From a virus: a stretch of DNA of 64,000 bases. The notes beneath the pieces were generated by a model that saw nothing but the letters and a program-made list of their open reading frames with translations, was not told where the DNA came from and made no database searches. Location: UHGV virus genome UHGV-1374671. One strand, written 5' to 3'. Both the position numbers and the translations under genes were made by a program. This document shows, piece after piece, positions 6,488 to 47,926 of the stretch; position 1 is the first letter of the stretch; each line of letters opens with the position of its first letter.

Positions 6488-6561
6488 ATATTGATAGTTG
6501 TGCTACATTATTGGGTATACGGAGTATACGCAATTTGGCTTAACTAGCAAAGGACACAGCT

Positions 6562-7299
6562 ATGGCGATTCATGGGTGTCACAGTTGTGGGGTAGACATT
6601 TCACAGTACAAGAGCTATGAAGAAAGTCCATGCGCCACATGCAAGCTGACAAAAGAGCACAACAAGACTCACCGTCCGGAGCTGTTTGACAGCGGTATTG
6701 ACGTCTCCACGGCGGAAGAGCAGGAAAAACTCGAAGTACAAGAGGACAGCGACACTGTATTGCTGCTTCAGCGACTGGGATGCGGTAAAGAGGACAAAGA
6801 CAAGGCCATCCATCTCCTGATGGAGGTCATACAGAACCAGGTTTACATTACCGCGTCCAACATCATCATCAAGATGTTGAAGCTGGCGAAGATCAGTCCG
6901 ATCATGTTTGAAGTCGTTCTTAAGAAAATGCAGTTCCCGTACATGAGCTACTCGGAAATAGGGGACAGCATGAATCCGCCATGCAGTAAACAGAACGTGC
7001 TCTATCATCTTAAGCACGCGGTTGAACTGTTCCCCGACCTGAACAACGCGCTGCTGACTGACACCAGATTCAGCGCCGGCAGGTACGCACTTCAAACCGT
7101 AGCCAATCGTTACCGCCAGATACAGGGCAAACGAAAAATACACGGCTTGATTTACAGCAACGACCCGGCTATGCGTGCCCATGCCATGACTGAGTTGAAT
7201 GCGATACTGTCTGCTCCGTTCATGATAAGTGACGCCATTGTAGATTTTGATCTGTACACCAAAGACGAGGAACATAATGAGCGCACCGCTGCGAATTGA
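6562..7299 (+). CDS. hypothetical protein
   Basis: 245 aa ORF after 74 nt intergenic gap. Confidence 0.4.
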   Translation: MAIHGCHSCGVDISQYKSYEESPCATCKLTKEHNKTHRPELFDSGIDVSTAEEQEKLEVQEDSDTVLLLQRLGCGKEDKDKAIHLLMEVIQNQVYITASNIIIKMLKLAKISPIMFEVVLKKMQFPYMSYSEIGDSMNPPCSKQNVLYHLKHAVELFPDLNNALLTDTRFSAGRYALQTVANRYRQIQGKRKIHGLIYSNDPAMRAHAMTELNAILSAPFMISDAIVDFDLYTKDEEHNERTAAN

Positions 7300-8473: not shown

Positions 8474-8796
8474 GCGTTAACCAGGGTGCGGATGTCGTGC
8501 TGCACCCTGTCCAACACGGCACTGGCCAACGTGACCGTATCGAAGATCATCGTTATGTCGTCAGTGCGGAAGTAGCAGTTGTCGCCTGGAATGCTGTCCG
8601 GGAATTCAACCATCTCCGACGGGGAACATACGTGACTGAACCGGTATAAGGGCTTCAACTTGTCAGCGCTCCTGGGAAGAAGTTCGATGGCGAAAATTTT
8701 TGGGGAAATGCCTTCAGCCTCCACATACAAGTGCAGCTTCGTGTATCCCTTGCGGGCAGTGGTGATCTTGTGATTGAGTTTTATAGAGACGCTCAT
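8419..8796 (-). CDS. hypothetical protein (convergent with previous gene, 55 nt 3' overlap)
   Basis: 125 aa minus-strand ORF. Confidence 0.35.
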   Translation of the reverse strand: MSVSIKLNHKITTARKGYTKLHLYVEAEGISPKIFAIELLPRSADKLKPLYRFSHVCSPSEMVEFPDSIPGDNCYFRTDDITMIFDTVTLASAVLDRVQHDIRTLVNAYNDFEDDELNSEGSTSF

Positions 8797-8803
8797 GACA
8801 TCC

Positions 8804-9037
8804 TCACTTTATCAAGACTCCGCCGATCATGCACGGAAGCGGAAACAGCTGTCGGCACGCTTCCACAAATATCGGATCGTTAGCATATTTAGTCGCTGCC
8901 AGTCTCAATGCGGCGTTCACGTTCACATTAGCGTGCCCGCACTTTCCGCAACGCTTCCAGGCTGCTGACGCGGCACTTATCATAGGAAAGCCCTGTAGAT
9001 TGGCGTTGAGAAGAGTTTTCTCGGCATTGCTTAACAT
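8804..9037 (-). CDS. small Cys/His-containing protein, possible zinc ribbon / HNH-like remnant
   Basis: 77 aa; CGKCGHANVNVN segment; weak. Confidence 0.25.
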   Translation of the reverse strand: MLSNAEKTLLNANLQGFPMISAASAAWKRCGKCGHANVNVNAALRLAATKYANDPIFVEACRQLFPLPCMIGGVLIK

Positions 9038-9095
9038 AAGAACCTTTCAACCCTGACTTTATCTTAAAAATACAGTTTCCAGAAGGGACAATAAC

Positions 9096-10013
9096 ATGAA
9101 CAACTTGAGTGACAGCTGTTTCGCATACCAGTCCATGCGAAAATATCCGATCCATACCAAAGAGGCCGCGTGTAACTCGTATCAGGAGTTTTCCAAAGAG
9201 GCGAGCTGCTATCCGAAAGCGCTGGCCGACTCCATTAAGAAGCGCTTTCAAAAGGCCGCAGAGTATCACGAGATCGATCTGGAGTCCCTCACCAAGGAGG
9301 CTTCAACCACTCCCAGGGAAACGATCACCTTCAAGGGCGTTGATGGCAACATTACGATGTCCAAAATCGCGTCCGCAAGCGACATTCCGGCTGCAATGGA
9401 GAAAATCCTGGAATACAGAGCGGTAACCAAGCGAGCCAACCTCCAGGAGGCTGCAAAGTACGTTATTTGGGCTGCTGCGAACACTGATTTCGACATGGAC
9501 TCCGATGACATGCGCAAAATTGCCCATATCGCAGGGCTGGGAGTCGGTGACCGGGAGCAGATCCAGGCAGAATTTGAGAAACGGGCCACTTTGAACATTC
9601 TGGATGGCGAATCCAAGGACGCGTTTTGGAAATTTGCTTCCGAATTGAAGGATCTCAGCGACGAGGACTTCTATTCCGAGGGCAATTTGAACAAAATGTG
9701 CTCGATTTTGGAAGAAATCGACACGCTGTACGACAATACGCACAAGTACGGAACCCAGCTCAAGCGGCCTGAGGATATTGTTTTTGCCCAGACCATGGAC
9801 GATCTCATCAAAGAAGCGCATGATCTGCTCCTGATCCCGTCCATCGACGCCACAATCAGCAAAACGGCGCTCCTGGAGCGTGCCGACAAGGCGAATTCCT
9901 TCTTCAAGACCTATCTTGGACAGGAAAAAGAACTCTCCGGAGACGATTTGTTCGGAAAAGTGGCGTCTCTGGATGCTGAAATCGCAGCCGCGCTGCTGGA
10001 AAGGATCGCATGA
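9096..10013 (+). CDS. hypothetical protein
   Basis: 305 aa ORF; divergent from the minus-strand ORFs upstream. Confidence 0.45.
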   Translation: MNNLSDSCFAYQSMRKYPIHTKEAACNSYQEFSKEASCYPKALADSIKKRFQKAAEYHEIDLESLTKEASTTPRETITFKGVDGNITMSKIASASDIPAAMEKILEYRAVTKRANLQEAAKYVIWAAANTDFDMDSDDMRKIAHIAGLGVGDREQIQAEFEKRATLNILDGESKDAFWKFASELKDLSDEDFYSEGNLNKMCSILEEIDTLYDNTHKYGTQLKRPEDIVFAQTMDDLIKEAHDLLLIPSIDATISKTALLERADKANSFFKTYLGQEKELSGDDLFGKVASLDAEIAAALLERIA

Positions 10014-10630
10014 GCGAGCTTCCGATCAACAAAGACACGTTTGTGACCACCATGGCGCTGCTCGGGGTGCGCGAACTGGGGCTGGAATCCCTGGACTGGG
10101 AGCCGGAAATCCTCAGAGACGCCTTCGAGGACGCCTATGGGATCAAAAAACTGTCCCAAAAGCTGTTCGACAAGCTGAACTGCGGGTATACGCTGATCGG
10201 TACTGACTCGTTCACGTCGTCCATAGAGGCGTTTCTGGCGGCTACGGCGGTTATGAACAACCGCGTGTTCGAGGCGGACGAGATTCCCTACTGTACTTTT
10301 GAGATGTGCGCCTGGAGCGTGTGGGAATACATCAACCTGATGGGCGACATCGAGGACGGGAAACCAACTGATCAGTTCAGTCCTGACATCATTGAGTACA
10401 TTCGCCAGGCCGCAAACGAGAACGGGATCTCCAGATTCCCCTTGTGGCTAAAGTTTGCGGAGCCAGAGAACAACCTTCCTGACCTGTCCGGCGACATCGA
10501 CCAATTCGAGATGTATCAGGAGCGACAAAACGACCGTATCAGTGACATGAATGGGTTCGTTACCAAGCGTCAGGAAGATCTTACAGCTGAACTTACGAAA
10601 ATGCAGGAACTTGGTTTTCTGGGGAACTGA
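10010..10630 (+). CDS. hypothetical protein
   Basis: 206 aa ORF, ATGA overlap with previous gene. Confidence 0.45.
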   Translation: MSELPINKDTFVTTMALLGVRELGLESLDWEPEILRDAFEDAYGIKKLSQKLFDKLNCGYTLIGTDSFTSSIEAFLAATAVMNNRVFEADEIPYCTFEMCAWSVWEYINLMGDIEDGKPTDQFSPDIIEYIRQAANENGISRFPLWLKFAEPENNLPDLSGDIDQFEMYQERQNDRISDMNGFVTKRQEDLTAELTKMQELGFLGN

Positions 10631-13250: not shown

Positions 13251-15086
13251 TTATATGAACTGGTTGTCAGGTGTTATTACGGATGCTCTCAAATCCACGG
13301 CTTCCTTGAAGCGCTCGAAATCCCCTCTGGGACCAAACACTTCGTCGTCCATGATCTTGTTGTGGTTCTCGTCGAAGTCCAGTACGGACGCGTCGTATCT
13401 GGAGCCGATTTTGGGATATGCTCCGAAGTGGTCCCATATCTGGGAGCATCCGAAGTTGACGGCATGCGCGAAGTCGTCAGGCGCTCCCGGCTTCTTGATG
13501 ATCAGCACGACGGTTTCGTTCCCCATGGACTTTCTGGGATCCTCCCGAAGGGCCAGCAAATCGCGCTGGAAGGCCTTCTCATCGGTTTCGGCGAATCCGG
13601 GCAGTCTGACCCGGGTTGCCTTGATCGACATCACTGTGATCGCCAGAGAGCGGCTTTTATCAAGGGTGTAGTAGTACAGGTCCGACTCACGCATCCCGGT
13701 ATGGGGAACCATCACATCCCCGGCACGGGGCCTGACGTAGTTGATGGGAATGACGATCAGCCCGGGAATGTCCCGCAGCCCCTGGTGGTTCATGATCTCC
13801 AGCCGGGCGAACCCGGCCCCGCCGTTGTCGTAAGTGAAGGCGTCGGCACCGGTTCCCCGTATCCAGTCCATGATCTCGTTCGCTTCATCGGTAGGAGTGA
13901 CGCCGTGCTTGATGCGCTTCCCGTACAGCACGTCGATCACGTCCGAATCCCGCCGCAGCCCCAGCACGGCATACGCGGTGTACGAATCGCTGACCATGGA
14001 ACCGCCTGACCAGTCCACCGCAACCGTGATGTACGAGTACAGATGCTTCAGCCCACGTACATCGGCAGGACGCTGCACGGAGATGTCATGCGTGGCCTTC
14101 TGCAGGTCGGACATGGTCAATGGGCTGGTGGCCGCATCGTAGGGCCACCCGAACACTTCGTTGTACAGCGCCAGCGGCGCATAGTTCTCGATCTTGTCCA
14201 GCAGCTTGTTCCACTTGTCCTGCGACAGGATGTGAAGCGGGTGCACTGTCTGCGAGATGTGATATCCGGGAAACGACAACTGGCGTTCCGGTCTGGCGTG
14301 CACGTATCCGCCGTTCTTGGGAAACACCGGCTTTCCGCAGTGGGCGCATACCGGGCCGTGCTTGCCGATCATCTTCAGCAGGTGCTGTTCCGGGTTCGGG
14401 ATGTTGAACTTGTTGCAGTGCTCGCAGCGGATCACCCACTCGGCCTGGCTGGAGCGGTTCCACAGCAGCGCCAGTGTGGTATCGGTGGTTTTGGGTGTTC
14501 CGGTGTACCGGGCGAAGCCCCAGAAAATCGAGGCCGACATCATCTCGTTACCGATGTCAATGAACTCGTACTCAATGTCTTGCACTTCATCCCACGTGGT
14601 GCTGGCCACGTTCGAGATACCGCGAGCCCGATCCGGTGACTCGAACATATGTTCTGCATAACACATGGATCCATTTTTAAATTCGCGTAAAGCCATTTTC
14701 TGCAATTCCGTGCTCTGAATGAACTGGGTTCGGATAGGGCAGGAGGAAAGGAGGGGTCTGTAAACAGTATTCACTAAACGCTGCACCTGGTCCGCTCTGG
14801 GCTGGATCAGCACTGTGTGGTAGTAGGGAATCAGCATGTTCCTGAGTCCGATATCGGCGGATATGCTGTACGACTTACCAAGCTGGCGGCCGCACATGTA
14901 AACAGAATGGGGAGACTGGACTGTGCTGAACATCGGTGCGAACTGATAGTGCAGATGCAGCGTCATGGGCTTTCCATTCAGCCGGAACAAGCATAGGAAA
15001 GGGATCAACGTCTTCAGTGATCCCTTCCTGATCTTATCGTAGGCATCCGCAAAGATGCTGTTCAGTTTTGTCGTTGAATTCGTCAT
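13251..15086 (-). CDS. terL: terminase large subunit (ATPase + nuclease)
   Basis: 611 aa; Walker A-like CGRQLGKSY; Walker B-like WDEVQD; ARYTGTP; C-terminal RNaseH-like nuclease region (VAVDWSGG, DNGGAG); CxxC...CxxC. Confidence 0.85.
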   Translation of the reverse strand: MTNSTTKLNSIFADAYDKIRKGSLKTLIPFLCLFRLNGKPMTLHLHYQFAPMFSTVQSPHSVYMCGRQLGKSYSISADIGLRNMLIPYYHTVLIQPRADQVQRLVNTVYRPLLSSCPIRTQFIQSTELQKMALREFKNGSMCYAEHMFESPDRARGISNVASTTWDEVQDIEYEFIDIGNEMMSASIFWGFARYTGTPKTTDTTLALLWNRSSQAEWVIRCEHCNKFNIPNPEQHLLKMIGKHGPVCAHCGKPVFPKNGGYVHARPERQLSFPGYHISQTVHPLHILSQDKWNKLLDKIENYAPLALYNEVFGWPYDAATSPLTMSDLQKATHDISVQRPADVRGLKHLYSYITVAVDWSGGSMVSDSYTAYAVLGLRRDSDVIDVLYGKRIKHGVTPTDEANEIMDWIRGTGADAFTYDNGGAGFARLEIMNHQGLRDIPGLIVIPINYVRPRAGDVMVPHTGMRESDLYYYTLDKSRSLAITVMSIKATRVRLPGFAETDEKAFQRDLLALREDPRKSMGNETVVLIIKKPGAPDDFAHAVNFGCSQIWDHFGAYPKIGSRYDASVLDFDENHNKIMDDEVFGPRGDFERFKEAVDLRASVITPDNQFI

Positions 15087-26921: not shown

Positions 26922-28478
26922 TAGGTACCTTTGCGGCGTGAGCCGCATCGAAGAAGAAAGTGAATTGCTGGAAGCCTAAACCGGGAGTGTAGCCCGGCAT
27001 GGTAATCAGCAGCCAATCAACCGGATCGCTAAACTGGATTCAACCATCCAGCATGCACCGGGGAAAAGGTTCAACGATCATCGGGGTGTCCACCTGATAA
27101 GCGGCCCCGTTAGCGTGCAAGCGTGCGCGAAGTGCTCCGTGACGGGAAACCGTCACGATGATATGATCTGTGCTACCCGAAAGGGATAGGAAGCCCCAGC
27201 CTGATCAGCTGGATAAGCCGGGTGAGCGTAGCGAACTCACTTGAACAAGAACCATGAGGTCTTATGAATCGACGTAAATTCTCACATTTACGCTTGATAT
27301 TGTTGACGTACATGCTATATTAGAACCAGGTACTATAATACACGGAAGTTTTGAAGTGATAAGCAGAGCTCATACAATCAAGCTGAAACCCAATAAAGCA
27401 CAGGCGATCATGCTGGCCAAGACGGCCGGTACTGCCAGGTATGCCTACAACTGGGGATTGGCCAAGTGGAATGAGCTGTACGAAGCCGGTGAGAAGTGCA
27501 GTGCTTACAGCCTGATGAAACTTTGGCAAGAAGGCAGACCTGACTGGGCATTGGAAGTGGGCGCTGCGTGTTTGCAGCGCCCGTTCATGCACCTGGAAGG
27601 CGCCTTCAAAGCGTTCTTCAGAGGACAGCGTAAGCACCCAACCTTTCACAAGAAGGGTTTGCGGGACGGGTTCTACGTCCCGAATACTCATTTCAAACTC
27701 CGTGGTAACAAGGTTCAGCTACCCAAGTGCGGACTTGTCAGAATGACCGAGCGTATTCGTTACGCGGATGTGAAGGTTGTTTCTTCGGCAGTCAAGCACC
27801 AGGCAGACGGCTGGTATGTCGTAATCCAGGTCGAGCTTGAAGAGGAACACAGAACCGAATCCGACTCTTTTGTCGGAGTCGATGTCGGATGTACCCAGCT
27901 CGCAACAGCGAGCGACGGTACGACCTGCTGCTCACCGGCCAAGCTCAAAGACCTGGAACGTCAGCTGAAACGTAGACAGCGCTTGCTGGCACGCAAAGCC
28001 AAGGGCTCCAACAATCGAGCGAAAGCGAGATTGAAGGTAGCCCGTACCTGGCAACGAATCAACAATATCAAACAAGACACAGCTCACAAGTTCACTGCAC
28101 TCATTGCCAAGAACCACGGCACTGTTTGCATTGAAAAGCTGGATGTGAAGAGTATGCAATCAGGAGACAACGCCCTCGTAAGAAAGGGCGTGCATAACTC
28201 CTGCATGTCGGAAATCCTGAGACAACTCAAGTACAAGTGTAACAACTTTATTGAAGTTGACAAGTATTTCCCGTCCAGTAAGACTTGTTCGAACTGTGGG
28301 CACATAAACGCTGAACTGACCCTTGGGGATCGCACGTATAATTGTCCGGGCTGCGGACTGAAAATCGACAGGGATCTGAACGCAGCGTTGAACCTCCGTA
28401 AGGAGGGTCTGAGGATTTACACGGTGGGTCACACCGGCAGTGCCTGTGGAGTTGCCCGGTAACGGGCGGCGCTGAAGC
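26922..28478 (+). mobile_element. IStron-like element: group I intron ribozyme core fused to an IS605-family (TnpB-only) module, inserted in the DNA polymerase gene
   Basis: ribozyme core ~26950-27290 shares P/Q/R/S elements with the helicase intron (GAATTGCTGGAAGCC, AATCAGCAGCC, GTTCAACGATCATC, GATATGATCTG); IS left-end-like hairpin CGTAAAT-tctcac-ATTTACG (~27268-27289); tnpB 27356-28462; right-end hairpin GCCCG-gtaa-CGGGC spanning the tnpB stop; the polymerase frame reopens right after a TGA at 28473-28475. Confidence 0.7.
27356..28462 (+). CDS. tnpB: TnpB (IS605 OrfB-family RuvC-like RNA-guided nuclease)
   Basis: 368 aa; RuvC-I GVDVG; CSNCG...CPGCG zinc finger; RuvC-III DRDLNAALNL. Confidence 0.85.
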   Translation: MISRAHTIKLKPNKAQAIMLAKTAGTARYAYNWGLAKWNELYEAGEKCSAYSLMKLWQEGRPDWALEVGAACLQRPFMHLEGAFKAFFRGQRKHPTFHKKGLRDGFYVPNTHFKLRGNKVQLPKCGLVRMTERIRYADVKVVSSAVKHQADGWYVVIQVELEEEHRTESDSFVGVDVGCTQLATASDGTTCCSPAKLKDLERQLKRRQRLLARKAKGSNNRAKARLKVARTWQRINNIKQDTAHKFTALIAKNHGTVCIEKLDVKSMQSGDNALVRKGVHNSCMSEILRQLKYKCNNFIEVDKYFPSSKTCSNCGHINAELTLGDRTYNCPGCGLKIDRDLNAALNLRKEGLRIYTVGHTGSACGVAR

Positions 28479-38070: not shown

Positions 38071-39024
38071 ATGTTCGATTTTGACATGCCGCCCCTTGAC
38101 TGGAGAACGGCATTTATCCCAAAAAAGTCAGGAGGGATGCGTAAGCTGCGAATCCCCAATGACGAGCTCAAGCGCGTTCAGCGCGACATCTTAAACTACC
38201 TGTACACTGTAAAGGAGTTGAGGCCGTCAGGCTTCGCTCACGGCTTTGTTCCGTTCAGAAGTACCTGTACAGGAGCCATGCGACATGATAGAAAGGCCGA
38301 GGTCATCCTGTGTATGGACGTACAGGATTTCTTTGACAACTTCCCGGTGGAACCGGTAAGGCAGGCCTTGCTGAATGCCCATATCGGTCGGGTTCTCACT
38401 GACAAGATCATCACAGCCTGCACCTGTGACGGGTCCTTTCCGCAAGGTGGACCGTGCAGTCCGTACCTGACCAACATCGGCATGAAGGAAGTGGACTTGT
38501 TGATCTCCGCGTATGCGGCCAACAACGGGTTCAATTACTCAAGGTATGCCGATGACATCGCCCTCAGTCGTGATCCGCATACGACAGTTCCAGAGAAGCG
38601 CAACTACAAGCACATTTTCTTCGGAGTCGAAAAGATTCTGAAGGAACGACTGGGGCTTCACCTGAAGCACAAGAAAGATCACACGATCTGGCTTCACAGC
38701 AAGAAGGCGCCCAGACGTATCACAGGTGTGGTGATCCGGAAAGACGGCACAGGCTACAACGCTCCGATGAAGATGCGCAAGCTGGGCCGTGCCATGTTGC
38801 ACCGTCTGTATCAGAGAATCTCGGACCGCAACGGTGTGGTGCTGGATTCGGACTGGGCGGACTGGAGAAAGGTGCTGGGCTATGTCCAGTATTTCGACCG
38901 TATCCGTGCTTACAGCGAACCGGAGTCCGCCACTGCGGATCCCAAGATACCGGAGAATCAATTCAACTATATGGCAGCCAGATTTGGCATGAAGAGGAGA
39001 ACAAACAATGAAAACATACAGTGA
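38071..39024 (+). CDS. reverse transcriptase, retron-type (no maturase/endonuclease domains)
   Basis: FIPKKSGGMRKLRIP (RT1/2); HGFVPFRSTCTGAMRH; LCMDVQDFFDNF (motif A, retron-like DFF); FPQGGPCSPYLTNI (motif B'); YSRYADDIALS (YADD); RRITGVVIR (retron VTG-like); N-terminal patterning close to retron-Ec86 RT. Confidence 0.8.
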   Translation: MFDFDMPPLDWRTAFIPKKSGGMRKLRIPNDELKRVQRDILNYLYTVKELRPSGFAHGFVPFRSTCTGAMRHDRKAEVILCMDVQDFFDNFPVEPVRQALLNAHIGRVLTDKIITACTCDGSFPQGGPCSPYLTNIGMKEVDLLISAYAANNGFNYSRYADDIALSRDPHTTVPEKRNYKHIFFGVEKILKERLGLHLKHKKDHTIWLHSKKAPRRITGVVIRKDGTGYNAPMKMRKLGRAMLHRLYQRISDRNGVVLDSDWADWRKVLGYVQYFDRIRAYSEPESATADPKIPENQFNYMAARFGMKRRTNNENIQ

Positions 39025-40981
39025 ACTCCTGCAGGAAGCCTGGGACGCCGACCGGGACTACTACGTCCTGGACAAGCCCACGCTCACCGACGAGGAGTAC
39101 GACAAACTCATTCGCAGCATAGAGGCCTATGAGATGCAGCACCCGGACGAGATCGATCCCAACAGCCCGACTCAGCGCATCGGCGGCAAGGTCTCAGGCG
39201 CGTTCCAGAAGGTAAAGCATCCGCAGAAGATGTTAAGCCTGAACAACGCGTTCACGCTGACAGAGCTTCAGCTGTTCGCCACCAAGGCCAACAGGACGGC
39301 GCCAGATGGTGTGACGTTCCTGGTGGAGCCGAAGCTGGACGGGCTCACGTTGGTCTGCTTCTACGAGGAAGGAAAGCTGATCAGGGCGGTAACCCGTGGC
39401 AACGGCGTAGAAGGAGAGGACGTCACCGCGACAGCCAGGACGATCCGCAATCTTCCGTTGACAGTTCCGTATGCCGAATCGTTCCAGGTGCGCGGCGAGT
39501 GCGTCATGCCCATCCAGGTGTTCATGGAGCTGAATGCGAAACTGACGGACGCCGGTGAGGAACCGTTCGCCAATCCCAGGAACGCGGCTGCCGGCAGCAT
39601 TCGGCAGAAGGATCCGGCATTGGCTGCCGAGCGCAGGTTGTCCGTGTGCTTCTACGATCTCATCAACGGACCGGCAGACCGGATTTATACTGAATCCGAC
39701 AAGCTGGACTGGATGGAGGAGATCGGACTGCCCACCGTGAGATCAGCGTCCGAGGCGTTCGAGGACATCGAGGGCGCCTTCGAGTTCTGCACCCAGTGTG
39801 GAAAGGTTCGCTCCGATATGCCTATCGAAATCGACGGCATGGTTATCAAGGTGAATCGCATCTTCGTACAGGACAAGATGGGAGTCGGAACCAAGTTCCC
39901 GAACTGGGCCGTGGCTTATAAGTTCCCTGCGGAGCACAAGGCGACCAGCCTGACCTCAGTCGAGTGGCAGGTGGGGCGCACCGGAAAGGTGACTCCCGTG
40001 GCAGTGGTGGACGCCGTCAACATGAACGGCATCTTGCTCACTCACGCCAGCCTTCACAACCCGGCCTACATTGAAGCCCTGGACCTTCGTATCGGGGACA
40101 AGGTGACGGTGTACAAGGCGGCTGAGATCATCCCGCAGGTAGGCACGGTACTGGAACACGGCGACGGGCAGAAGGTGAAGATCGCGGATCAGTGTCCCAG
40201 CTGCGGAACCAAACTGGTGCAGGACGGTGCCGATCTCATGTGCACGAATCCGAAGTGCATTGGACGCCTGGTCACCTGGCTGTACTATTTCGGAGCCAGG
40301 GCCAACATGTACATCAAGGGTCTCGGTGTTGCCGTTATCAAGCAGCTGGTGGACTCAGGTATGTGCAAGGATCCTGCAGATCTGTACGCGCTGACCAGGG
40401 ATCAGCTGCTGAAGCTGGACGGGTTCAGCGACAAGAAAGCTGACTCGCTGCTGGCCTCCATCCAGGAGTCCAAGGCGCGTCCGTACCACAGAGTGCTCGC
40501 ATCCCTGGGCATCGAGATGCTGGGCGATTCCACTGCCGTTGACGTGGCTGCCCAATTTCCCACCATGGAGGCCCTTCTGGCTGCGACTGTGTCCGACCTG
40601 ATGGAAATACCTGGGATCGCACAAAAGACAGCCACAGCGATCTATGCGGGCCTGCATGACGATTCCATGGAGGACATCATAACCAGACTCGGAAAACAGG
40701 GTCTGTCGATGGTCAGCGAGTCGTCCAAGGAGCCGCAGACGCTGTCCGGGCTTTCCATCTGCATCACCGGAACTCTCACCAGGGATCGTGATTCCTACAA
40801 GGACGAGATCCAGTCGCATGGTGGAAAATTCGCAACCTCGGTGTCATCCAAGACCAGCTACCTGGTCGTAGGCGAGAACGTTGGTGAAACAAAACTGACA
40901 AAAGCAAGGAAGCTCGGCATCCCGATGATATCGGAGGACCAGCTTCAGGAGTTGATCAAACATGGAAAACAACAAAATTGA
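39008..40981 (+). CDS. ligA: NAD-dependent DNA ligase (LigA), full length with C-terminal BRCT
   Basis: EPKLDGL (KxDG adenylation lysine); RGNGVEGEDVT; OB, Zn (CPSCGTKL...C..C), HhH and BRCT regions; start overlaps RT stop by 17 nt. Confidence 0.9.
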   Translation: MKTYSELLQEAWDADRDYYVLDKPTLTDEEYDKLIRSIEAYEMQHPDEIDPNSPTQRIGGKVSGAFQKVKHPQKMLSLNNAFTLTELQLFATKANRTAPDGVTFLVEPKLDGLTLVCFYEEGKLIRAVTRGNGVEGEDVTATARTIRNLPLTVPYAESFQVRGECVMPIQVFMELNAKLTDAGEEPFANPRNAAAGSIRQKDPALAAERRLSVCFYDLINGPADRIYTESDKLDWMEEIGLPTVRSASEAFEDIEGAFEFCTQCGKVRSDMPIEIDGMVIKVNRIFVQDKMGVGTKFPNWAVAYKFPAEHKATSLTSVEWQVGRTGKVTPVAVVDAVNMNGILLTHASLHNPAYIEALDLRIGDKVTVYKAAEIIPQVGTVLEHGDGQKVKIADQCPSCGTKLVQDGADLMCTNPKCIGRLVTWLYYFGARANMYIKGLGVAVIKQLVDSGMCKDPADLYALTRDQLLKLDGFSDKKADSLLASIQESKARPYHRVLASLGIEMLGDSTAVDVAAQFPTMEALLAATVSDLMEIPGIAQKTATAIYAGLHDDSMEDIITRLGKQGLSMVSESSKEPQTLSGLSICITGTLTRDRDSYKDEIQSHGGKFATSVSSKTSYLVVGENVGETKLTKARKLGIPMISEDQLQELIKHGKQQN

Positions 40982-41945
40982 ACTGGACGACATCACGCCG
41001 GCCTCGTTCGCGCATCTGATCGAGCGACGTGACGACATCCTCCTTCAGCACGGAGGTGTGGTTACCCGCATGTATTTCGACAAGGTCGAGCTGATGGATC
41101 TGGACGCTTTCCTTCAGCAGGAGGTGCCCAGGCTGAAGCGACAGCAGCAGGAGCTCACGATCATACGTGACTCCGTCAGCAAATCCGTCAGCCTGATTAC
41201 CGGAGACCAGGTGATCAAGTACCACCTCACGAACATGGAGGAGTGCTTCGCGGACGAGCTGGCCAAGCTGATCAAGGTGGATGAGGTGAAGACGTTCATC
41301 CCGGACATTCACTATCCGTTGATCGGGTATGTGGACAAGGCCGATTACAAGGTGATAACTGTTCTTATCGAGAACAAATCGTTCACGTACAGAACCAAGA
41401 TGTTCGGCGGCGATCAGAAGGAATACGCCACGCGTGTTCACCTTCCACCGATATGGCTGGCTGTCCGCGTCAACAGGGCCGGTACGGTTCTCGGGGCCAG
41501 GATCGCTGCAGTACCGGAGAAGTCGTTGAAGACGGAGGACACGGTGCTGTACCGGCTCCCGCTTCCGAACATACACGTCAACGGAGAACTGTGTCTTGGC
41601 ACAGCTGCAGTAAAGGACGCATTTGCGCACGTGGAGCAGCCTACTGATGGCATGATTATTCAGGTCGTTGTTGATCAGATCTTCAACAGTCTGTGGAACT
41701 ATGACCTTATAGATCGCGATCTCGCCGAAGTGGTGAATGACGCCTACAGGAAAGCGCGTGTCAACAACCGTGACGCGTTCGACTCGTTTATTTCATATGC
41801 TGCTGGTAACCAGGCTGTTGCGATGCAGATCCGTATTGTTGGAATCCTGACCGATCCCAATGGTTGGAAGTTATTGAAGTACCGCAAGATGAACAAATAC
41901 GGCGGTGGAGACAGGATGCCTGTTACGCAGTTTCTGGAGGGCTGA
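40962..41945 (+). CDS. hypothetical protein
   Basis: 327 aa ORF overlapping ligA end by 20 nt. Confidence 0.4.
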   Translation: MENNKIELDDITPASFAHLIERRDDILLQHGGVVTRMYFDKVELMDLDAFLQQEVPRLKRQQQELTIIRDSVSKSVSLITGDQVIKYHLTNMEECFADELAKLIKVDEVKTFIPDIHYPLIGYVDKADYKVITVLIENKSFTYRTKMFGGDQKEYATRVHLPPIWLAVRVNRAGTVLGARIAAVPEKSLKTEDTVLYRLPLPNIHVNGELCLGTAAVKDAFAHVEQPTDGMIIQVVVDQIFNSLWNYDLIDRDLAEVVNDAYRKARVNNRDAFDSFISYAAGNQAVAMQIRIVGILTDPNGWKLLKYRKMNKYGGGDRMPVTQFLEG

Positions 41946-41948
41946 CAG

Positions 41949-42188
41949 ATGCGGGAACCCTTGTTTAAAAGGAAGCGGCCGATCAGGGTCGTCCTGCAGC
42001 GCGCCCCGTATTACGGGTACGCTCCGATCGGCAAAGAGGGGAACAGCGGAATGAACGCGTTCAACGCAGCCTTCGAGCAGGCTGTGAAAGCCACCAAGAT
42101 GACGGTGATGGCCAACGCCATGAAACAAATCCAAAAAGAGGCCGAGCATGTAGACTCGGATCTCGATATCCGAACAATTGAGGTGTAA
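41949..42188 (+). CDS. small hypothetical protein
   Basis: 79 aa ORF filling the gap between neighbouring genes. Confidence 0.3.
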   Translation: MREPLFKRKRPIRVVLQRAPYYGYAPIGKEGNSGMNAFNAAFEQAVKATKMTVMANAMKQIQKEAEHVDSDLDIRTIEV

Positions 42189-43344
42189 GATGAGAAGTTA
42201 TCTGATTGGGAGCGACAGGTGTCTTGTGCACACCAAATCTCCCATGCTGGAAGGGTGGGAGCCTTGCAAGGACCTGGAGGTCATCAAGGCGTTCGCCCCC
42301 AAGTGCAACCCCAAGTACCAGCCTGGGATGGTCTGGGTAGGCAGCAAGATGCCGTCCGAGCTCTTCCAGAAGGTGCTTGGCACGTTTGCGCAGTTCCCGA
42401 AGATGGAAACAGCGTACTCGATCTATTACCGGCTCAGCGACAGAAGCTGGCACATTAAAGTTCCTTCCCAGTGCGGGGCAGGGGCGTCCGTGCAGTTCGA
42501 GGACAAGGGGGATGGCGTACCGGCAGGCTATGCTCTGATCGGGTCCATTCATACGCATCCAGAAATGGGTGCGTTCTGGAGCGGTACCGACATGAACGAC
42601 CAGAAAAGCAAGTACGGGCTGCATATGGTATTCGGTCTCAAGGACGGAAAGGTGGCTCATCACAAGTGCTCCATCTTCACTCCCACGGACAAGTATGACC
42701 AGGAGATCTGGAACGTGGTCGAGGAAACCGACTTGGACGCCGACTATGAAGCTCCCCCGGAGTGGGTCGAGAAGATCAGGGCCCAGGATTACAAGCCGGT
42801 GAGGCAGTCCTGGGTGCAGCCTCTTCCGTACGACGTTTCCGGCAAGTACAGGTCTCCGGGTCAGTTTATGCGACCCCGTTACAACGTCCTCAGGCCTGTC
42901 ACGTACACCTGGGATGCCGGCAGCGGCTGGCACAAGAATGATCCAGACGTGGCACAGCCCACTTGGGAAGCCGGCACTTTCTCTTATCATGAGCCTGACG
43001 TCAATGCCCAGGAGCAAGTGTCCGACGCTGTTCTGAAAGCGCGTAAGGAATTTGAGAACGCACTGGACGTCCTTGTATGCGAGGCCGACTCCGAATACGT
43101 TCAGGAACTTCTGGACAGCTACGGGTTCTCCACGATGGACATGGAAACCGGCGCCATTGCCGGCGACGACGAGGACATCTCCTGGGAGGAGTCCCTGGAC
43201 GAAGCTCTGGCAGTGGCTGCGGAGTTCGCCGACGCGGACCCCAACCCGGAGACCAGGGATACTATGCGGGCCATCCTGCAGAAGTACGGGTTTGTCAGTG
43301 TCCATGCTCTGGATGAACAGGAAGAGGAGGCTCCATCATGCTGA
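42178..43344 (+). CDS. JAB/MPN (JAMM) metallopeptidase-domain protein with acidic C-terminal region
   Basis: IGSIHTHPEMGAFWSGTDMND matches H-x-H-x7-S-x2-D JAMM zinc motif. Confidence 0.6.
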   Translation: MRCKMRSYLIGSDRCLVHTKSPMLEGWEPCKDLEVIKAFAPKCNPKYQPGMVWVGSKMPSELFQKVLGTFAQFPKMETAYSIYYRLSDRSWHIKVPSQCGAGASVQFEDKGDGVPAGYALIGSIHTHPEMGAFWSGTDMNDQKSKYGLHMVFGLKDGKVAHHKCSIFTPTDKYDQEIWNVVEETDLDADYEAPPEWVEKIRAQDYKPVRQSWVQPLPYDVSGKYRSPGQFMRPRYNVLRPVTYTWDAGSGWHKNDPDVAQPTWEAGTFSYHEPDVNAQEQVSDAVLKARKEFENALDVLVCEADSEYVQELLDSYGFSTMDMETGAIAGDDEDISWEESLDEALAVAAEFADADPNPETRDTMRAILQKYGFVSVHALDEQEEEAPSC

Positions 43345-44234
43345 ACATCTATGTGATCGGCTGTGGAGGCATCGGAGGGTACCTGACTGAGATGCTGCCG
43401 ATGGCGATCGCCAGTCTGTCCCTGGACATTCTCCAGAGCAAGGGCATGTCCATTCAGGCGTACTTGGACAAGGCCGGCAACATCGCACTGCCTTGTGTCG
43501 CTGACCGGCTCACTCTGGTAGACGGGGATATCTTCAACGCCAGGAACTCCCTGCGACAGGGAGCAGGCGCCGGCAGCAAATTGGCCCAGCGAATGCAGGA
43601 CATCCAGCACTCCGTGGTCAGGCTCAGCTATCTGCAGAACATGAAGCTAGTCGGGTATAACGCCTATGTGAACCCGGCCAACATGTCACAGATCATACCT
43701 GAGCATCCGGAAATCAACCCGGACAACGCGGACGCCGCCATGAAGTACGGTAGCGATAGGCCTGCAGACTGTCCGAGACTGTTGGACAACTCGGTAGTGT
43801 TCCTGTGCGTGGACAACCTCAAGACCAGGTACGAGGTTTCCAAGTACATGGAAAACTTCCAGAACTGCCTTGTCATCAATGGCGGGAATGAGAAGACCTC
43901 AGGACACGTCACTCTCTATGAGCGCCGGAACGGGGAAGCACTTGATCCCAACATCTACGACGTGTATCCCAACATCACACCGGACGCGGACAAGCGTCCC
44001 GACGAGGAGGCATGCACCGAGATGTCTCCCAAACACGATCAGATTGCGGTGACGAACAGCATCGTCGCCAACATCATGATAGCCAGCTTCAACCGGTGGG
44101 CCAGATCAGGACTGACCCAGACGGAGGGAACCGGCGAAAGAAAGCGCACGGTGCGCAAAAACGAGGTGATCATTGACACTGACAGGATGTCCATGATTTC
44201 CGTGTATCACCCGCTGGGAACGCCCAGCAAGTAA
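43338..44234 (+). CDS. ThiF/MoeB/E1-like adenylyltransferase
   Basis: Rossmann VIGCGGIGGYL; E1 signature LTLVDGDIFNARNSLRQ (h-D-x-D-x-V-x-x-S-N-L-x-R-Q). Confidence 0.65.
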   Translation: MLNIYVIGCGGIGGYLTEMLPMAIASLSLDILQSKGMSIQAYLDKAGNIALPCVADRLTLVDGDIFNARNSLRQGAGAGSKLAQRMQDIQHSVVRLSYLQNMKLVGYNAYVNPANMSQIIPEHPEINPDNADAAMKYGSDRPADCPRLLDNSVVFLCVDNLKTRYEVSKYMENFQNCLVINGGNEKTSGHVTLYERRNGEALDPNIYDVYPNITPDADKRPDEEACTEMSPKHDQIAVTNSIVANIMIASFNRWARSGLTQTEGTGERKRTVRKNEVIIDTDRMSMISVYHPLGTPSK

Positions 44235-44260
44235 CCAGGCAAACGAAAGGAAAAACAATC

Positions 44261-44689
44261 ATGCCTACCACCCTGTTCAACGTCTATTCCGACCGTACCC
44301 GTGACATCCAGCTGAATCCCGGCACCACTGTCGGGCAGCTTCGTCGCATTCTCAAGGAGGGCGGATACGACGTCGTCGAAGCAACCGCCCACGTGGATCG
44401 TGCCGACGGCAGCGTCCTGCATGGCTACGTGGACAACTACGTACTCAAGGAGGGCGATGGCGTTCGCTTCAACACCGTCGTTCATGAGTACCCCGCCGAG
44501 GACTACCTCCAGAAGCAGGAGGAAGCCCGCAAGGCGGCTCATGCCTGCACCTGCCACGAGTGCAAGTGCGACGCCGCCGAGCAGTCCGTCAGCGTCGATA
44601 CGCTGAAGTCCGGTGACCGCACCATTGTCGTCGGCAAGGCCAAGATCACCATGAACGGTGATACGGTCACCATCGTTATCGGCAAGTAA
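44261..44689 (+). CDS. ThiS/MoaD-like beta-grasp (ubiquitin-like) protein with Cys-rich C-terminal extension
   Basis: N-terminal ~75 aa follows a ThiS-like pattern (YVLKEGDGVRFNTVV); then CTCHECKC; no terminal GG. Confidence 0.4.
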   Translation: MPTTLFNVYSDRTRDIQLNPGTTVGQLRRILKEGGYDVVEATAHVDRADGSVLHGYVDNYVLKEGDGVRFNTVVHEYPAEDYLQKQEEARKAAHACTCHECKCDAAEQSVSVDTLKSGDRTIVVGKAKITMNGDTVTIVIGK

Positions 44690-44794
44690 ATGTCAGTCGA
44701 TAGAGTAAAAACAACGTCAACAACAAACAATCAAGTCATGGAGACGGGTATGGTATCCGTCTCCGAATCCAAAAACAAAGAAGGAAACAGTATC

Positions 44795-45382
44795 ATGAAA
44801 GAGATCATCATCAACGGCATCAACGGCGCTTCCATCAACTTCGCGGCGGAGGACAACACCACTCTGGCTCAGATCTGCGAGCACGAGACGGTCATGGCGT
44901 TCTTCGACGAGGAAGCCGATACCATCAAGGAGAGCCTGCTGGAGATGAACGGCGGTGACGTCAGCGCGTTCCGCTCCTCCCTGCTCACCGCTCAGCCGTC
45001 GGACGGTGACTCTCTCCTGTTCGATCTGGACGGAGAGGTTGAGGAGGATAACTCCGATGAGGACGGCGAGGATGGCGTGGTCGTCGTGGCCACCAGCGGC
45101 GGTCTGCAGACCACCAACGTGGACATCGTCTGCGGCCGCACCACGGTCCATGACGCGATTTACTGTGACGTGGTCCGTGCCCGCAGCGGTATGACCGACG
45201 CCCAGCTGTCGAACTGCACCATCCTCCTGAACGAGGAGGAGATCTCCGACGAGGTGTCCCGTACCCGCACTCTGCGCAACGGCGACACCATTACGCTGTC
45301 CGCCCGTGCTGCGTCTTCCAAGGGCAAGACCTCGAAGAAGGTCGGGTTGCTGAAGGCCTTTGTCAAGGTCGTCTGCCGGTAA
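44795..45382 (+). CDS. tandem ThiS-like beta-grasp protein (two Ubl domains, internal Gly-Gly sites)
   Basis: MKEIIINGINGASINFAAEDNTTLAQI (ThiS-like start); internal GG at LEMNGG and VVVATSGG; second domain ...TLRNGDTITLSARA; hairpin GGAGACGG/CCGTCTCC just upstream. Confidence 0.4.
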   Translation: MKEIIINGINGASINFAAEDNTTLAQICEHETVMAFFDEEADTIKESLLEMNGGDVSAFRSSLLTAQPSDGDSLLFDLDGEVEEDNSDEDGEDGVVVVATSGGLQTTNVDIVCGRTTVHDAIYCDVVRARSGMTDAQLSNCTILLNEEEISDEVSRTRTLRNGDTITLSARAASSKGKTSKKVGLLKAFVKVVCR

Positions 45383-45388
45383 CCAACC

Positions 45389-45907
45389 ATGGAGGACAGT
45401 CGGATGAGAACGTGGAAGATTGAGATCCCTTTGAGGGTTCGCTGTGTTCAGAGCACCAGAGGAGGGCGAGGTCATTTTCACGTCGATCCGGCTGTCCGCA
45501 AGTGGAAGGAAGCCATTGCTCCGTACATCCGTGCCTGCAGTCCTGGACGACCGTCCAAGATGCCTATCCGGGTGAAATCCTTCGTGTACTACTTCCGCTG
45601 CCCGAAATCGGCAAAGGCTCCCGTCGTCCGCTACATCAAGGACGGCGGCGAGGTCCCGTACATGGGCGTTGCAGACATCACGGACAACATGAACAAAGGT
45701 GTTGTGGACGTCTGCAAGGGAGTGGTGTTCGAGGACGATTCTCAGATATGGCACGTCTGCGGCATCAAGAAGTTGTATGGACTTACCGATCACATCTTGC
45801 TGGAGTTCGAGGAAACACCTGACGTTGTCCTGATCAACGGCAAAAGAGGAAGTTCTCTCAGTGACGATCAAGACGAGATTCAAGACGACACCTGCTCTCT
45901 TATCTGA
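45389..45907 (+). CDS. hypothetical protein (member of Ubl/E1/JAB gene cluster)
   Basis: 172 aa ORF directly after the Ubl genes. Confidence 0.4.
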   Translation: MEDSRMRTWKIEIPLRVRCVQSTRGGRGHFHVDPAVRKWKEAIAPYIRACSPGRPSKMPIRVKSFVYYFRCPKSAKAPVVRYIKDGGEVPYMGVADITDNMNKGVVDVCKGVVFEDDSQIWHVCGIKKLYGLTDHILLEFEETPDVVLINGKRGSSLSDDQDEIQDDTCSLI

Positions 45908-46343
45908 GAGAGGTGCGTTGCATGTCCTGGTTGACATGCTTTGGAAAAACGGAGAGTACACCCGATCAGAAGTGTACTCGCTCCTGTCCCGTATTCTGCA
46001 GCAAGACAACCCGGTGCACATCTCTGATCTTGATCACAGCGAGATGTTGAAGGTAAGCCTGCGGATACAGAGGATGTTGGAGCAGGACGGGATAGCGCCC
46101 TGCCGTCAGTGCAAGTTTTGCGGCGCCGAGTGCACAACGCTCGGTATGCGGATCTGCGCACTGACCGGCAGGCCTTTCTGCTATCGGTATCAGAACAGTG
46201 AATTGATGCTCGCTCCTTGCGAGCGATACACAGAGGCCAGACATGCGAAGATTCTGCAATCTGAAGAAGCCGTCATTTTCCGAGAGGAAAATCGTGTATA
46301 TGAACGTAATGGGGATACCGCTACCTGTTGCCGTTCCCAGTGA
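45861..46343 (+). CDS. Cys-rich hypothetical protein (zinc-ribbon-like CRQCKFCGAEC)
   Basis: start uncertain (45861 or 45936). Confidence 0.3.
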   Translation: MTIKTRFKTTPALLSERGALHVLVDMLWKNGEYTRSEVYSLLSRILQQDNPVHISDLDHSEMLKVSLRIQRMLEQDGIAPCRQCKFCGAECTTLGMRICALTGRPFCYRYQNSELMLAPCERYTEARHAKILQSEEAVIFREENRVYERNGDTATCCRSQ

Positions 46344-47469
46344 AAGAGAATTGGCCAAATACCAGGAGCAGGACTGCACGCTGGAAGATCTGCTGATTTT
46401 TCAGGTGTCAGAGCTCAATGCGACATTCCCCAATAACCCGTACCAGCTGCTGTGCAAGGCAATGGATCCGGTGCGTGATTCTTACTGGCTGCTCGGTAAA
46501 ACAGACTGTGAAGCTACACGCCGAATAAGGGGCGAGGTCGAGGCTTCCTGCGTGCGCAAATACAGAAGTTTCGTCCACATCTTTGATGGGCGTCTCTGGG
46601 GCAACGACCACATAGTGCGGGTAGACCGCACCTTAAGTGTGGCCGACTTCCGGGAGATGCTGAACCGGACGATTTACTACATCGACGGTAAGAGCGACCT
46701 GCCGAAGTGCGATCAGTTGCTTGGGTTGCCGTACAACGTCTCTCCGTCTACTGGAGATACATCTGCCGATGACATGCTGGATCAATCTTTCGTGTTCGTC
46801 GTTGACTGGTTTAAAGCCTGGTTCAGTTACCTGCAGATCGATGCGGTAAGCATGATGTGCGATTCCTTCAGCTCAAACGTGAAGTACGACGACCGTTATG
46901 TCAAGTCCTTTATCGGGCATTATCTGCTCGGTATCAAAGAGCCTGAACCTGATCCTGAGGCTGAGCCAGTCGAAGAGATCAGGACAGACGCTGAGGTACC
47001 GGAGGTTGAGAACCAACCCCAGGAGCCTGTTATTCAGCAGGAAGAAGAGGAAGTGCTCGATCCGGTTGTCTACCCGGATGGAATCCACATGCTGGAGACC
47101 ATGTCCGGCCAGGAACAGCAGTTCTTCCGGGTCAAGGCCGAGGCCACAGTCAACTTCAGCATGCAATTCAGCTTCACGGAGCACTACCTGAAGCAGTACG
47201 TCGACACATTCAACGCAACGCTCGCTCCGGCAGGAGTCACAGTCAGGGCGACAGGCGCGAACTTCGCCTGTGTCGAGTTCGATCGCCTGGAGGTGTGCGA
47301 CGGATATCCGACAGCCGAGTCCATGAACTTTGAGAGCATCAAGGAGAAGGCGGCGTTGGTGGACATGATCTACAAGATTTTGGTCGACATGCACCGGCGC
47401 AACCGGCTGTACAAGCAGGTCGTAGCCACAGGCAAAACCCAGTTGCTCGATGGAGCACAGAAAGGATGA
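46300..47469 (+). CDS. hypothetical acidic protein
   Basis: ATG at 46300 with GAGGAAAA RBS; frame start 46243. Confidence 0.4.
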   Translation: MNVMGIPLPVAVPSERELAKYQEQDCTLEDLLIFQVSELNATFPNNPYQLLCKAMDPVRDSYWLLGKTDCEATRRIRGEVEASCVRKYRSFVHIFDGRLWGNDHIVRVDRTLSVADFREMLNRTIYYIDGKSDLPKCDQLLGLPYNVSPSTGDTSADDMLDQSFVFVVDWFKAWFSYLQIDAVSMMCDSFSSNVKYDDRYVKSFIGHYLLGIKEPEPDPEAEPVEEIRTDAEVPEVENQPQEPVIQQEEEEVLDPVVYPDGIHMLETMSGQEQQFFRVKAEATVNFSMQFSFTEHYLKQYVDTFNATLAPAGVTVRATGANFACVEFDRLEVCDGYPTAESMNFESIKEKAALVDMIYKILVDMHRRNRLYKQVVATGKTQLLDGAQKG

Positions 47470-47470
47470 G

Positions 47471-47926
47471 ATGATTCTTCTGTTCACAGATGGAAGCGCC
47501 ATCCGGAATCCTGGGCCGTCAGGTTGGGCGTGGGTCGCCGTCCGGGAAGGACAGCGACTCGCCTATCATGCCGGCTACATTCCGAACGGCACCAACAACC
47601 GGGGAGAGCTCACGGCCGCCATCAACGCATTGAAGTTCGTTTCCGGCATCCGTGGGCAGTACCCGAATGAGCGCATCGTTCTGGTGTCTGACAGCCGGTA
47701 TGTCATCGGCGGGCTCAGTCAGTGCGACGAATGGGCTGTGGAGCCGGGAAAGCCGAACTCCGATCTGTGGGAGCAGGCCTACGATGCGCTTTTGAATGTC
47801 GGATGCCCGATCTCCATGAAATGGGTGAGAGGGCATACCGGAAACAAGAACAACGAACTTTGTGACCGGCTGGCCAGGAACGCGGCCAAGACCGGTGAGG
47901 AGGATCAATGGCGGCTTTCCAAATGA
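47471..47926 (+). CDS. rnhA: ribonuclease HI
   Basis: TDGSAIRNPGPSG (Asp); NRGELTA (Glu); VSDSRYV (Asp); WVRGHTGNKNNELCDRLA (His/Asp). Confidence 0.8.
   Translation: MILLFTDGSAIRNPGPSGWAWVAVREGQRLAYHAGYIPNGTNNRGELTAAINALKFVSGIRGQYPNERIVLVSDSRYVIGGLSQCDEWAVEPGKPNSDLWEQAYDALLNVGCPISMKWVRGHTGNKNNELCDRLARNAAKTGEEDQWRLSK

Follow-up and report, generated by a model that had tools for sequence, protein, structure and literature searches.

The window analysed here, a stretch of 64,000 nucleotides (nt) from the virus genome UHGV-1374671, contains six co-oriented plus-strand genes, arranged head to tail from 40962 to 45382, which with a probability of roughly 0.7 encode a self-contained cascade for the conjugation of a ubiquitin-like (Ubl) modifier that would be expressed together with the replication and recombination genes of the phage. 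This reading is preferred because four activities comprise intact catalytic residues that are invariant across 20 to 39 orthologs. From 5' to 3', the genes encode an E2-like conjugating enzyme of the Prok-E2_D type (40962-41945; 327 amino acids, aa), a small conserved protein (41949-42188; 79 aa), a JAB/JAMM metallopeptidase (42178-43344; 388 aa from the TTG at 42178 or 384 aa from the ATG at 42190), a minimal E1-like adenylating enzyme with a single Rossmann-type domain (43338-44234; 298 aa), an accessory protein (44261-44689; 142 aa) and the precursor of the Ubl modifier (44795-45382; 195 aa from the ATG at 44795, within a longest open reading frame (ORF) of 230 aa at 44690-45382). An initial annotation of the sequence had proposed a conjugation-type module of E1, JAB and Ubl in the replication region of the phage, which still stands; an E2 exists as well, although its gene (40962-41945) lies further 5' than the module had been drawn. 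The gene that had been considered as an E2 partner, at 45389-45907 on the plus strand, turned out to encode a RusA Holliday-junction resolvase (Pfam 1e-09; PHROG 3.2e-15).

The genes of the module are densely packed. The E2 gene overlaps the stop of the preceding ligase gene by 20 nt and the E1 gene overlaps the JAB gene by 7 nt, and the other gaps within the module amount to 3-105 nt. No plus-strand terminator-like site was found within the module, and promoter-like sites were not above chance. Since the genes overlap or nearly abut, as the initial annotation had described, and since an internal plus-strand terminator-like site is missing, co-transcription of the module is plausible. The core order recurs in about 30 related metagenomic loci with E1 identities of 38-87%, and by this recurrence the arrangement exceeds chance. 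In loci at 47% E1 identity, the full order is the same as in the window, namely reverse transcriptase (RT)-like polymerase, ligase, E2, small protein, JAB, E1, accessory protein, Ubl, RusA and DUF3268.

The JAB peptidase contains the JAMM motif HTHPEMGAFWSGTD at 42550-42591 and the glutamate E77 at 42406-42408. The full JAMM site, comprising E77, H125, H127, S135 and D138, is invariant in 21 orthologs, and all 21 of them match Prok-JAB of Pfam, so that the metallopeptidase proposed earlier for 42178-43344 is confirmed. The window protein itself reached 24.6 bits for Prok-JAB (cut-off 25) and an E-value of 1.6e-06 for PRTRC_A of NCBIfam. The conservation is confined to the first ~210 residues; towards the C-terminus, ~180 aa are acidic and variable in sequence.

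For the E1, the Rossmann strand starts from residue 2, the glycine-rich stretch GCGGIGG is located at 43359-43379, and LVDGDIFNARNSLRQ is also present. Across 39 sequences, the positions G8, C9, G10, G11, G13, D62, D64, N70, R73, Q74, K81, D159, N160, R164 and C226 are invariant, with D159 at 43812-43814 and C226 at 44013-44015 in the stretch RPDEEACT (RPDExxCT in the family). The invariance of the adenylation residues bears out the earlier description of 43338-44234 as a ThiF/E1-like enzyme, as do a match to ThiF of Pfam with 33.2 bits (E 3.9e-08; cut-off 28.1) and one to PRTRC_ThiF of NCBIfam (5.2e-06). The E1 profile aligned with the ThiF of a plasmid PRTRC (ParB-related, ThiF-related) cassette over 199 columns (hhalign 97.3%, E 2.7e-11), and C226 was aligned with the Cys of that protein. 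Probably, C226 forms the thioester with the Ubl, its placement relative to the crossover loop being putative. About one quarter of the E1 orthologs comprise an insertion of ~40-75 residues after window residue ~88 (about 43600; alignment A1), which is missing from the window copy and contains no conserved Cys.

The E2 of the window matched Prok-E2_D of Pfam with 24.2 bits (E 3.1e-05) and PRTRC_B of NCBIfam with 6e-04, and among 20 orthologs Prok-E2_D was matched by 17, with a best E of 5.5e-11. Only five positions, D9, P162, N203, C211 and G213, are invariant across the orthologs. The motif PLPNIHVNGELCLG at 41559-41600 corresponds to PN-x7-C-x-G, in which N203 is encoded at 41568-41570 and C211, the putative catalytic residue, at 41592-41594. 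Compared to the HPN...C signature of UBC enzymes, the spacing of 8 from Asn to Cys is UBC-like. No invariant or near-invariant His was found in the E2 alignment (A2), where S243 and N246 are conserved instead. Judged by its sequence, the protein encoded at 40962-41945 is a bona fide E2 of the UBC superfamily with a putative catalytic Cys.

The probable start of the Ubl is the ATG at 44795, which is preceded by GAAGGAAA, and the orthologs begin with MK.I.I. An AlphaFold2 model calculated from 16 sequences showed a mean predicted local distance difference test (pLDDT) value of 81.8 and two beta-grasp domains, residues 1-78 and 94-172, with a pLDDT of 82-95, which are connected by a disordered acidic linker and followed by a disordered C-terminal tail. 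In structural terms, the Ubl was compared with known beta-grasp proteins, giving values of 9.1 for MoaD2/ThiS, 8.8 for RnfH, 8.5 for the BilA Ubl of a bacterial E1-E2-Ubl complex, 8.4 for SAMP1 and 7.4-7.8 for ubiquitin, SUMO and ISG15. A Foldseek search against viral models returned ubiquitin inserts and giant-virus ubiquitins. At the level of sequence, the Ubl matched no Pfam family at threshold and no NCBIfam family, and searches of PDB sequences with the profiles of E1, E2, Ubl and accessory protein gave nothing significant. A RecA match from the PDB profile searches was rejected as an artefact of weak repeats summed over concatenated RecA chains.

Domain 2 of the Ubl ends with the flexible stretch L-S-A-R-A-A-S-S-K-G, in which K and G (45320-45325) are invariant. 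In the window, this Lys-Gly is followed by a tail of 18 aa, KTSKKVGLLKAFVKVVCR, at 45326-45379. To collect the family, 1.84 billion representative proteins were searched with a profile, which resulted in a closed family of only 96 members that were analysed together with the earlier matches. Of 129 domain-2 units, 118 end with x-Gly, comprising KG in 88, HG in 8, GG in 7, NG in 7 and DG in 5 units. Among 93 last units that end with Gly, 21 stop exactly on this residue and 72 carry a tail, mostly of 1-4 residues. Furthermore, tandem forms with two units occur in 26 of 106 scanned family members, with the internal junction R-K-A-G-x-K-G followed by A, S or C. The combination of a terminal Gly, variable tails and tandem forms is, as read from these sequences, the signature of a peptidase-matured and C-terminally activated modifier, and the tandem forms have the character of polyubiquitin-like precursors. 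The predicted processing site in the window is SSKG|KTSKK (KG at 45320-45325), where the tail would be removed. Thus, the earlier idea of a C-terminal Gly that is exposed by the peptidase and activated by the E1 is in line with the conserved Gly and its variable tails, though the end is Lys-Gly. The internal Gly-Gly sites LEMNGG and VVVATSGG, which had been proposed for cleavage, are beta-turns inside folded domains in the AlphaFold2 model and were therefore discarded; LEMNGG forms a turn between two strands of domain 1, and VVVATSGG belongs to the first hairpin of domain 2, where TSGGL is invariant.

Two further observations concern this family. The tails are enriched in Cys, which occurs in 29 of 70 short tails compared to 1.3% Cys in these proteins overall. 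In 26 tails it is the last or second-last residue (KGC, KGCRR, ...VVCR, ...IYCW; proteins P0121-P0262), and it is also the commonest residue directly after the Gly (16 of 72 tails), which recalls the CysO-Cys adduct cut by the JAMM protease Mec+. In three loci (L041 at 8226-10046, L039 and L042, the latter a human gut metagenome record) the Ubl gene is expanded to ~605 aa, comprising two units of domain 1 plus domain 2, each ending with KG, and, behind the second KG, ~160 residues that resemble extra beta-grasp-like domains.

The remaining two proteins of the module are conserved accessory factors, which possibly serve in targeting or in bridging E1 and E2. The 79-aa protein has a basic N-terminus (MR...) and a weakly conserved C-terminal half, and it matched no family in the family-model searches. 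Of 20 loci, 16 contain an ORF of 62-93 aa at this place between E2 and JAB, and these ORFs resemble each other weakly in sequence. In the 142-aa protein, the first ~72 aa are conserved and are followed by a linker, a conserved Cys pair (C98/C103) and a variable C-terminus, in which no conserved C-terminal Gly was found. The confidence of its AlphaFold2 model was low, with a mean of 53.6 and values of 65-83 for residues 20-73, from which a small alpha/beta domain, beta-grasp-like or RCK_C-like, may be suggested with low confidence for the N-terminal ~72 aa. The comparison of this protein with the Ubl by hhalign was insignificant, one of its homologs is labelled MoaD by JGI, and its gene is missing in L019 as well as in L036 and L040, where the Ubl gene is duplicated. 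The initial annotation had described two ThiS-like beta-grasp proteins. This holds true for the second one with its two predicted beta-grasp domains, while the first one, at 44261-44689, shows neither a confident fold nor a conserved C-terminal Gly and is regarded as an accessory protein instead of a second modifier.

Based on the observed gene content and order, the catalytic residues, the fold predicted by AlphaFold2 and the terminal Gly with its tails, a scheme can be proposed, by analogy to known conjugation systems, for the chemistry of each step, for the direction in which the Ubl moves, for the place where the peptidase cuts and for the biological role. The JAB would trim the two-domain Ubl precursor just after the invariant Lys-Gly, removing the tail of 18 residues, and where relatives have tandem units, single modifiers would be released from the poly-Ubl by the same enzyme. 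The exposed C-terminal Gly would then be adenylated by the E1 with ATP, with a probable thioester on Cys226, and the Ubl would be handed on to Cys211 of the E2, which would move it onto lysines of phage or host proteins. A deconjugation by the JAB, which would undo the modification, is also possible.

Some observations weigh against such a conjugation cascade. Co-transcription was deduced from the spacing of the genes only, an E3-like component was not recognised, and the terminus of the Ubl is a single Gly after Lys, not Gly-Gly. In addition, the E2 and JAB of the window lie just below the Pfam cut-off of 25 (24.2 and 24.6 bits), and neither the E1 protein nor its family profile matches anything among the PDB sequences. 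This strong divergence of the E1 would fit an enzyme that acts outside of conjugation, by adenylation or cyclisation of the MccB or PaaA type, with the beta-grasp proteins as substrates or chaperones and the 'E2' as a non-catalytic scaffold; E1-like enzymes with such roles exist elsewhere. However, the invariant Cys in the UBC-like motif PN-x7-C-x-G points to a catalytic E2, the presence of a JAB together with a conserved terminal Gly and disposable tails fits the maturation of a Ubl, and the nearest relative of the E1 is that of the PRTRC cassettes, in which genes for E2, JAB and Ubl are likewise present. A non-conjugative E1 is consequently considered very improbable. The ThiF/MoeB-like size of the minimal E1 could also be explained by a sulfur carrier function, in which a Ubl of the ThiS, MoaD, CysO or TtuB type would be adenylated by the E1 and converted to a thiocarboxylate as the source of sulfur for a cofactor, for cysteine or for the thiolation of tRNA or DNA, and in which the JAB would resemble Mec+ and take off a C-terminal residue. 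The MoaD label of one homolog of the 142-aa protein points in the same direction, as does the Cys directly after the terminal Gly in 16 of 72 tails, since a CysO-Cys adduct is cleaved by Mec+ in M. tuberculosis. Yet the module retains an E2 with an invariant catalytic Cys, which sulfur carrier systems do not use, and the terminus is Lys-Gly, with GG in only 7 of 129 units. The neighbours scanned within ~10 kb, many of which are without a family match, included no recognisable rhodanese, cysteine desulfurase, ThiG, MoaE, CysM or PP-loop thiolase, and we know of no precedent for tandem poly-Ubl precursors among sulfur carriers. Altogether, a sulfur carrier appears quite improbable.

A different explanation accepts the identity of the enzymes and assigns them to counter-defence by interference, in which the JAB would strip conjugates of the host formed by Bil or CBASS (cyclic oligonucleotide-based antiphage signalling system), while Ubl, E1 and E2 of the phage would be decoys that jam the host enzymes. 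The location of the module in the early/replication region is compatible with this, and on the host side, Ubl conjugates are formed on phage tail proteins by bacterial Bil, and Cap2/Cap3 operate in type II CBASS. For this purpose, however, a deconjugase alone would suffice, whereas a complete set is found in which the invariant residues of E1, E2 and Ubl terminus are under purifying selection. Moreover, no PADLOC model was matched beyond the GxGxxG stretch, and there is therefore no indication that components of the host are closely mimicked. Interference is thus regarded as unlikely. Returning to the conjugation cascade, a function connected with replication or with the maintenance of the replicon, or else with the neutralisation of host factors early in infection, is favoured by analogy, because the module lies between the ligase and RusA and because PRTRC cassettes lie beside dnaN and parB. 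From this location, a connection to replicon functions may be suspected, and the role in counter-defence that the initial annotation had considered is equally conceivable.

The surroundings of the module identify the window as phage DNA, with family matches in Pfam and PHROG for the large terminase, primase, helicases, SbcCD, RusA, RNase H and ThyX. The large terminase is encoded on the minus strand at 13251-15086, and the replication-type genes comprise SbcCD-like nuclease subunits, helicases, a DnaB-like helicase, primase and ThyX. Directly 5' of the module lie the gene of the RT-like polymerase (38071-39024, plus strand, 317 aa; Pfam RVT_1; PHROG 2825 'polymerase', 5.8e-34) and, following it directly, that of the NAD-dependent ligase, and this position of the polymerase gene is retained in L002 (47% E1 identity). 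On the 3' side, RusA and RNase H are found. The 3' end of the RusA gene is overlapped by a gene at 45861-46343 (plus strand), which encodes a protein of 160 aa with a weak match to the DUF3268 zinc finger (Pfam 1.7e-04; PHROG 1934) and which comes after RusA in most related loci. The composition of the window is uniform, and no tRNA genes were found in it. Also within the replication region, a protein of 368 aa encoded at 27356-28462 (plus strand) belongs to a transposase family (PHROG 506, 8e-103) and is possibly part of a TnpB/IS605-type element.

Concerning the distribution of the module, no match to the window at the DNA level was found in 50,697 deposited phage genomes, and a tblastn search of the deposited phage genomes with the E1 returned only the ThiF of a Bacillus phage with 24.5% identity. 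In a large protein collection, 147 homologs of the E1 were identified, all of metagenomic origin, on contigs of up to ~188 kb, many of them of 150-188 kb. The related loci originate from IMG/VR and from JGI/ENA metagenomes and include a contig of 191.6 kb and one human gut metagenome record; a scan of IMG/VR with a single protein gave nothing, and the relatives were recovered by a profile scan. The representative bacterial and archaeal genomes of GTDB contained only PRTRC-like relatives with at most 25% identity and therefore provided no clue to a prophage or host. Since all homologs are metagenomic, many of them lie on large contigs and the bacterial and archaeal relatives do not exceed 25% identity, the family appears to be restricted to one clade of large phages (~130-190 kb) from gut and rumen that are uncultured.

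Related sets of genes, rearranged compared to the window, were also detected in other viral contigs of IMG/VR. A second viral lineage (L009, L011 and L012; 55-56 kb) comprises E2, an ORF of 114 aa, E1, an ORF of 284 aa and JAB; in L009, at 5581-9763, an ORF of 80 aa with beta-grasp-like character is located just 5' of the E2, which contains the motif LPLGNLYETCQVCMG. In L010 (149 kb), JAB and an E1 of 542 aa at 4772-9296 are followed by a polynucleotide kinase-phosphatase. A distant pair of JAB (463 aa) and E1 (251 aa), the latter sharing 25.7% identity with the E1 of the window, was found at 6499-8642 of L064 (OY725881.1), which is deposited without annotation as 'plasmid 47' of Subdoligranulum variabile (167.8 kb) and which, from its size, may be a large phage or phage-plasmid.

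In the full-text literature that was searched, no description of a phage-encoded cascade of E1, E2, JAB and Ubl was found, and a comparative review of jumbo-phage conflict systems contains no mention of JAB, ThiF, E1-like proteins or Ubl. The broader proposal is that phages run their own ubiquitination-like cascade, which tags host or phage proteins during the replication phase with a Ubl from tailed or tandem precursors, and that at least one further viral lineage does so as well; we consider its chances to be evenly balanced. Since 2023, Ubl conjugation in bacteria has been treated as antiviral machinery of the host (Bil, type II CBASS, Bub). If the proposal is true, both sides would use the same chemistry, as in the conflicts between eukaryotic viruses and their hosts, and these virulent-looking genomes would contain the virus-side counterpart of the Bil and CBASS conjugation defences. 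The module would also be a tractable model for the unexplained PRTRC cassettes, which were predicted in 2006 and are common on plasmids and integrative and conjugative elements (ICEs). With an E1 of 298 aa, an E2 encoded separately and a Ubl whose cleavage site is obvious, the set is compact enough for biochemical reconstitution, and the tandem poly-Ubl forms add an example from a prokaryotic virus to the polyprotein-style maturation of Ubl proteins.

A comparison with Bil, with Cap2/Cap3 of CBASS and with ThiS/MoaD had been suggested by the initial annotation. It showed that the layout of four proteins and the two-domain Ubl are shared with Bil, while the module as a whole falls outside each of the three systems. 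Phage tail proteins are the targets to which Bil attaches its Ubl, and Cap2/Cap3 are employed by type II CBASS (PMC11601603, 10.1101/2023.09.04.556158, PMC10557695). Like the phage module, Bil consists of four separate proteins, a Ubl, an E2, a JAB deubiquitinase and an E1, and the naming order of its enzymes (BilB for E2, BilC for JAB, BilD for E1) agrees with the order found here. The Ubls of type I BilA also contain two beta-grasp domains (PMC11601603). In contrast, BilD has adenylation domains in tandem, inactive and active, in addition to a CYS domain that is mobile (PMC10557695), whereas the phage E1 is a single domain of 298 aa. Furthermore, Bil serves the defence of the host while the module is encoded by a phage, and poly-Ubl precursors and two accessory proteins belong to the module and not to Bil. 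PADLOC gave no match for E2, JAB and Ubl and matched only the first ~20 residues of the E1 (GxGxxG) to models of the Cap2 type, PADLOC 2.0 possibly lacking Bil models. Contrary to type II CBASS, where Cap2 is a fusion of E1 and E2 that acts on the CD-NTase (cGAS/DncV-like nucleotidyltransferase), the phage E1 and E2 are separate, with two genes (79-aa protein and JAB) between them, and no CD-NTase was detected among the neighbours of the module. The difference to ThiS/MoaD lies in the terminus, as GG occurs in 7 of 129 units of the phage Ubl and KG in 88.

With the eukaryotic Ubl proteins ubiquitin, SUMO, NEDD8 and ISG15, the phage Ubl shares the beta-grasp fold, synthesis as a precursor that is either extended shortly at the C-terminus or made of head-to-tail repeats and, as predicted here, a dedicated peptidase that exposes the C-terminal Gly; ISG15 is also a two-domain protein. 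The phage protein differs, however, in having Lys-Gly in place of Gly-Gly at its terminus, in a repeat unit that combines two dissimilar beta-grasp domains and in its predicted maturation by a JAMM metalloprotease, and a similarity in sequence was not detected. Among phages, the only pairing of Ubl and JAB that we found described is TAPI (Ubl) with TAPK (JAB and NlpC/P60) in the tail assembly of lambda and T1 (PMC1779556). This pair includes no E1 and no E2, is located in the tail gene cluster and has its JAB fused to NlpC/P60, whereas the phage module lies among replication genes and comprises the full machinery.

According to the sequence comparisons, the closest known relatives appear to be the uncharacterised PRTRC cassettes (NCBIfam TIGR03735-03738), which probably correspond to operon type '6d' described by Iyer, Burroughs and Aravind in 2006. 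In type 6d, a small Ubl ending with Gly and an E1 occur together with a JAB that carries a domain at its N-terminus and with an E2 that lacks the His of HPN but has a downstream His that is absolutely conserved (PMC1779556). PRTRC families are the only named families that are matched by all three phage enzymes (PRTRC_B by the E2, PRTRC_A by the JAB and PRTRC_ThiF by the E1). The hidden Markov model (HMM) of the phage E2 matches the gene just 5' of the ThiF gene in PRTRC-like loci of plasmids and Flavobacteriaceae, the E2 homolog detected by HMM search in the PRTRC locus of Pseudoalteromonas (L063) being located at 4982-5683, and the HMM of the phage JAB likewise detects its counterpart in bacterial PRTRC-like loci. 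Both systems comprise separate genes for E2, JAB and E1 and a Ubl with a C-terminal Gly, and both are carried by mobile elements beside replication or partition genes, as seen for the plasmid cassette of L063, which directly follows dnaN and parB.

Nonetheless, the phage proteins score 4-7 times under the equivalog cut-offs, with 27.8 compared to 101.8 bits for PRTRC_A, 19.2 compared to 131.45 bits for PRTRC_B and 26.0 compared to 144.75 bits for PRTRC_ThiF. The phage Ubl is a two-domain or poly-unit protein with a mature size of ~177 aa, while PRTRC_C is a single domain of ~72 aa, no similarity to the Ubl of a plasmid cassette being detected (hhalign 2%), and the phage E2 lacks the invariant downstream His. 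No ParB gene was found among the neighbours from 38071 to 47926, which comprise the RT-like polymerase, NAD-ligase, RusA, DUF3268 and RNase H genes. Finally, the phage module includes two extra conserved small proteins, and its carrier is a large phage and not a plasmid or ICE. Altogether, every part of the module belongs to an already known superfamily, and what sets the module apart is the carriage by a phage, the minimal E1, the two-domain or tandem Ubl that ends with Lys-Gly, and the two extra conserved proteins.

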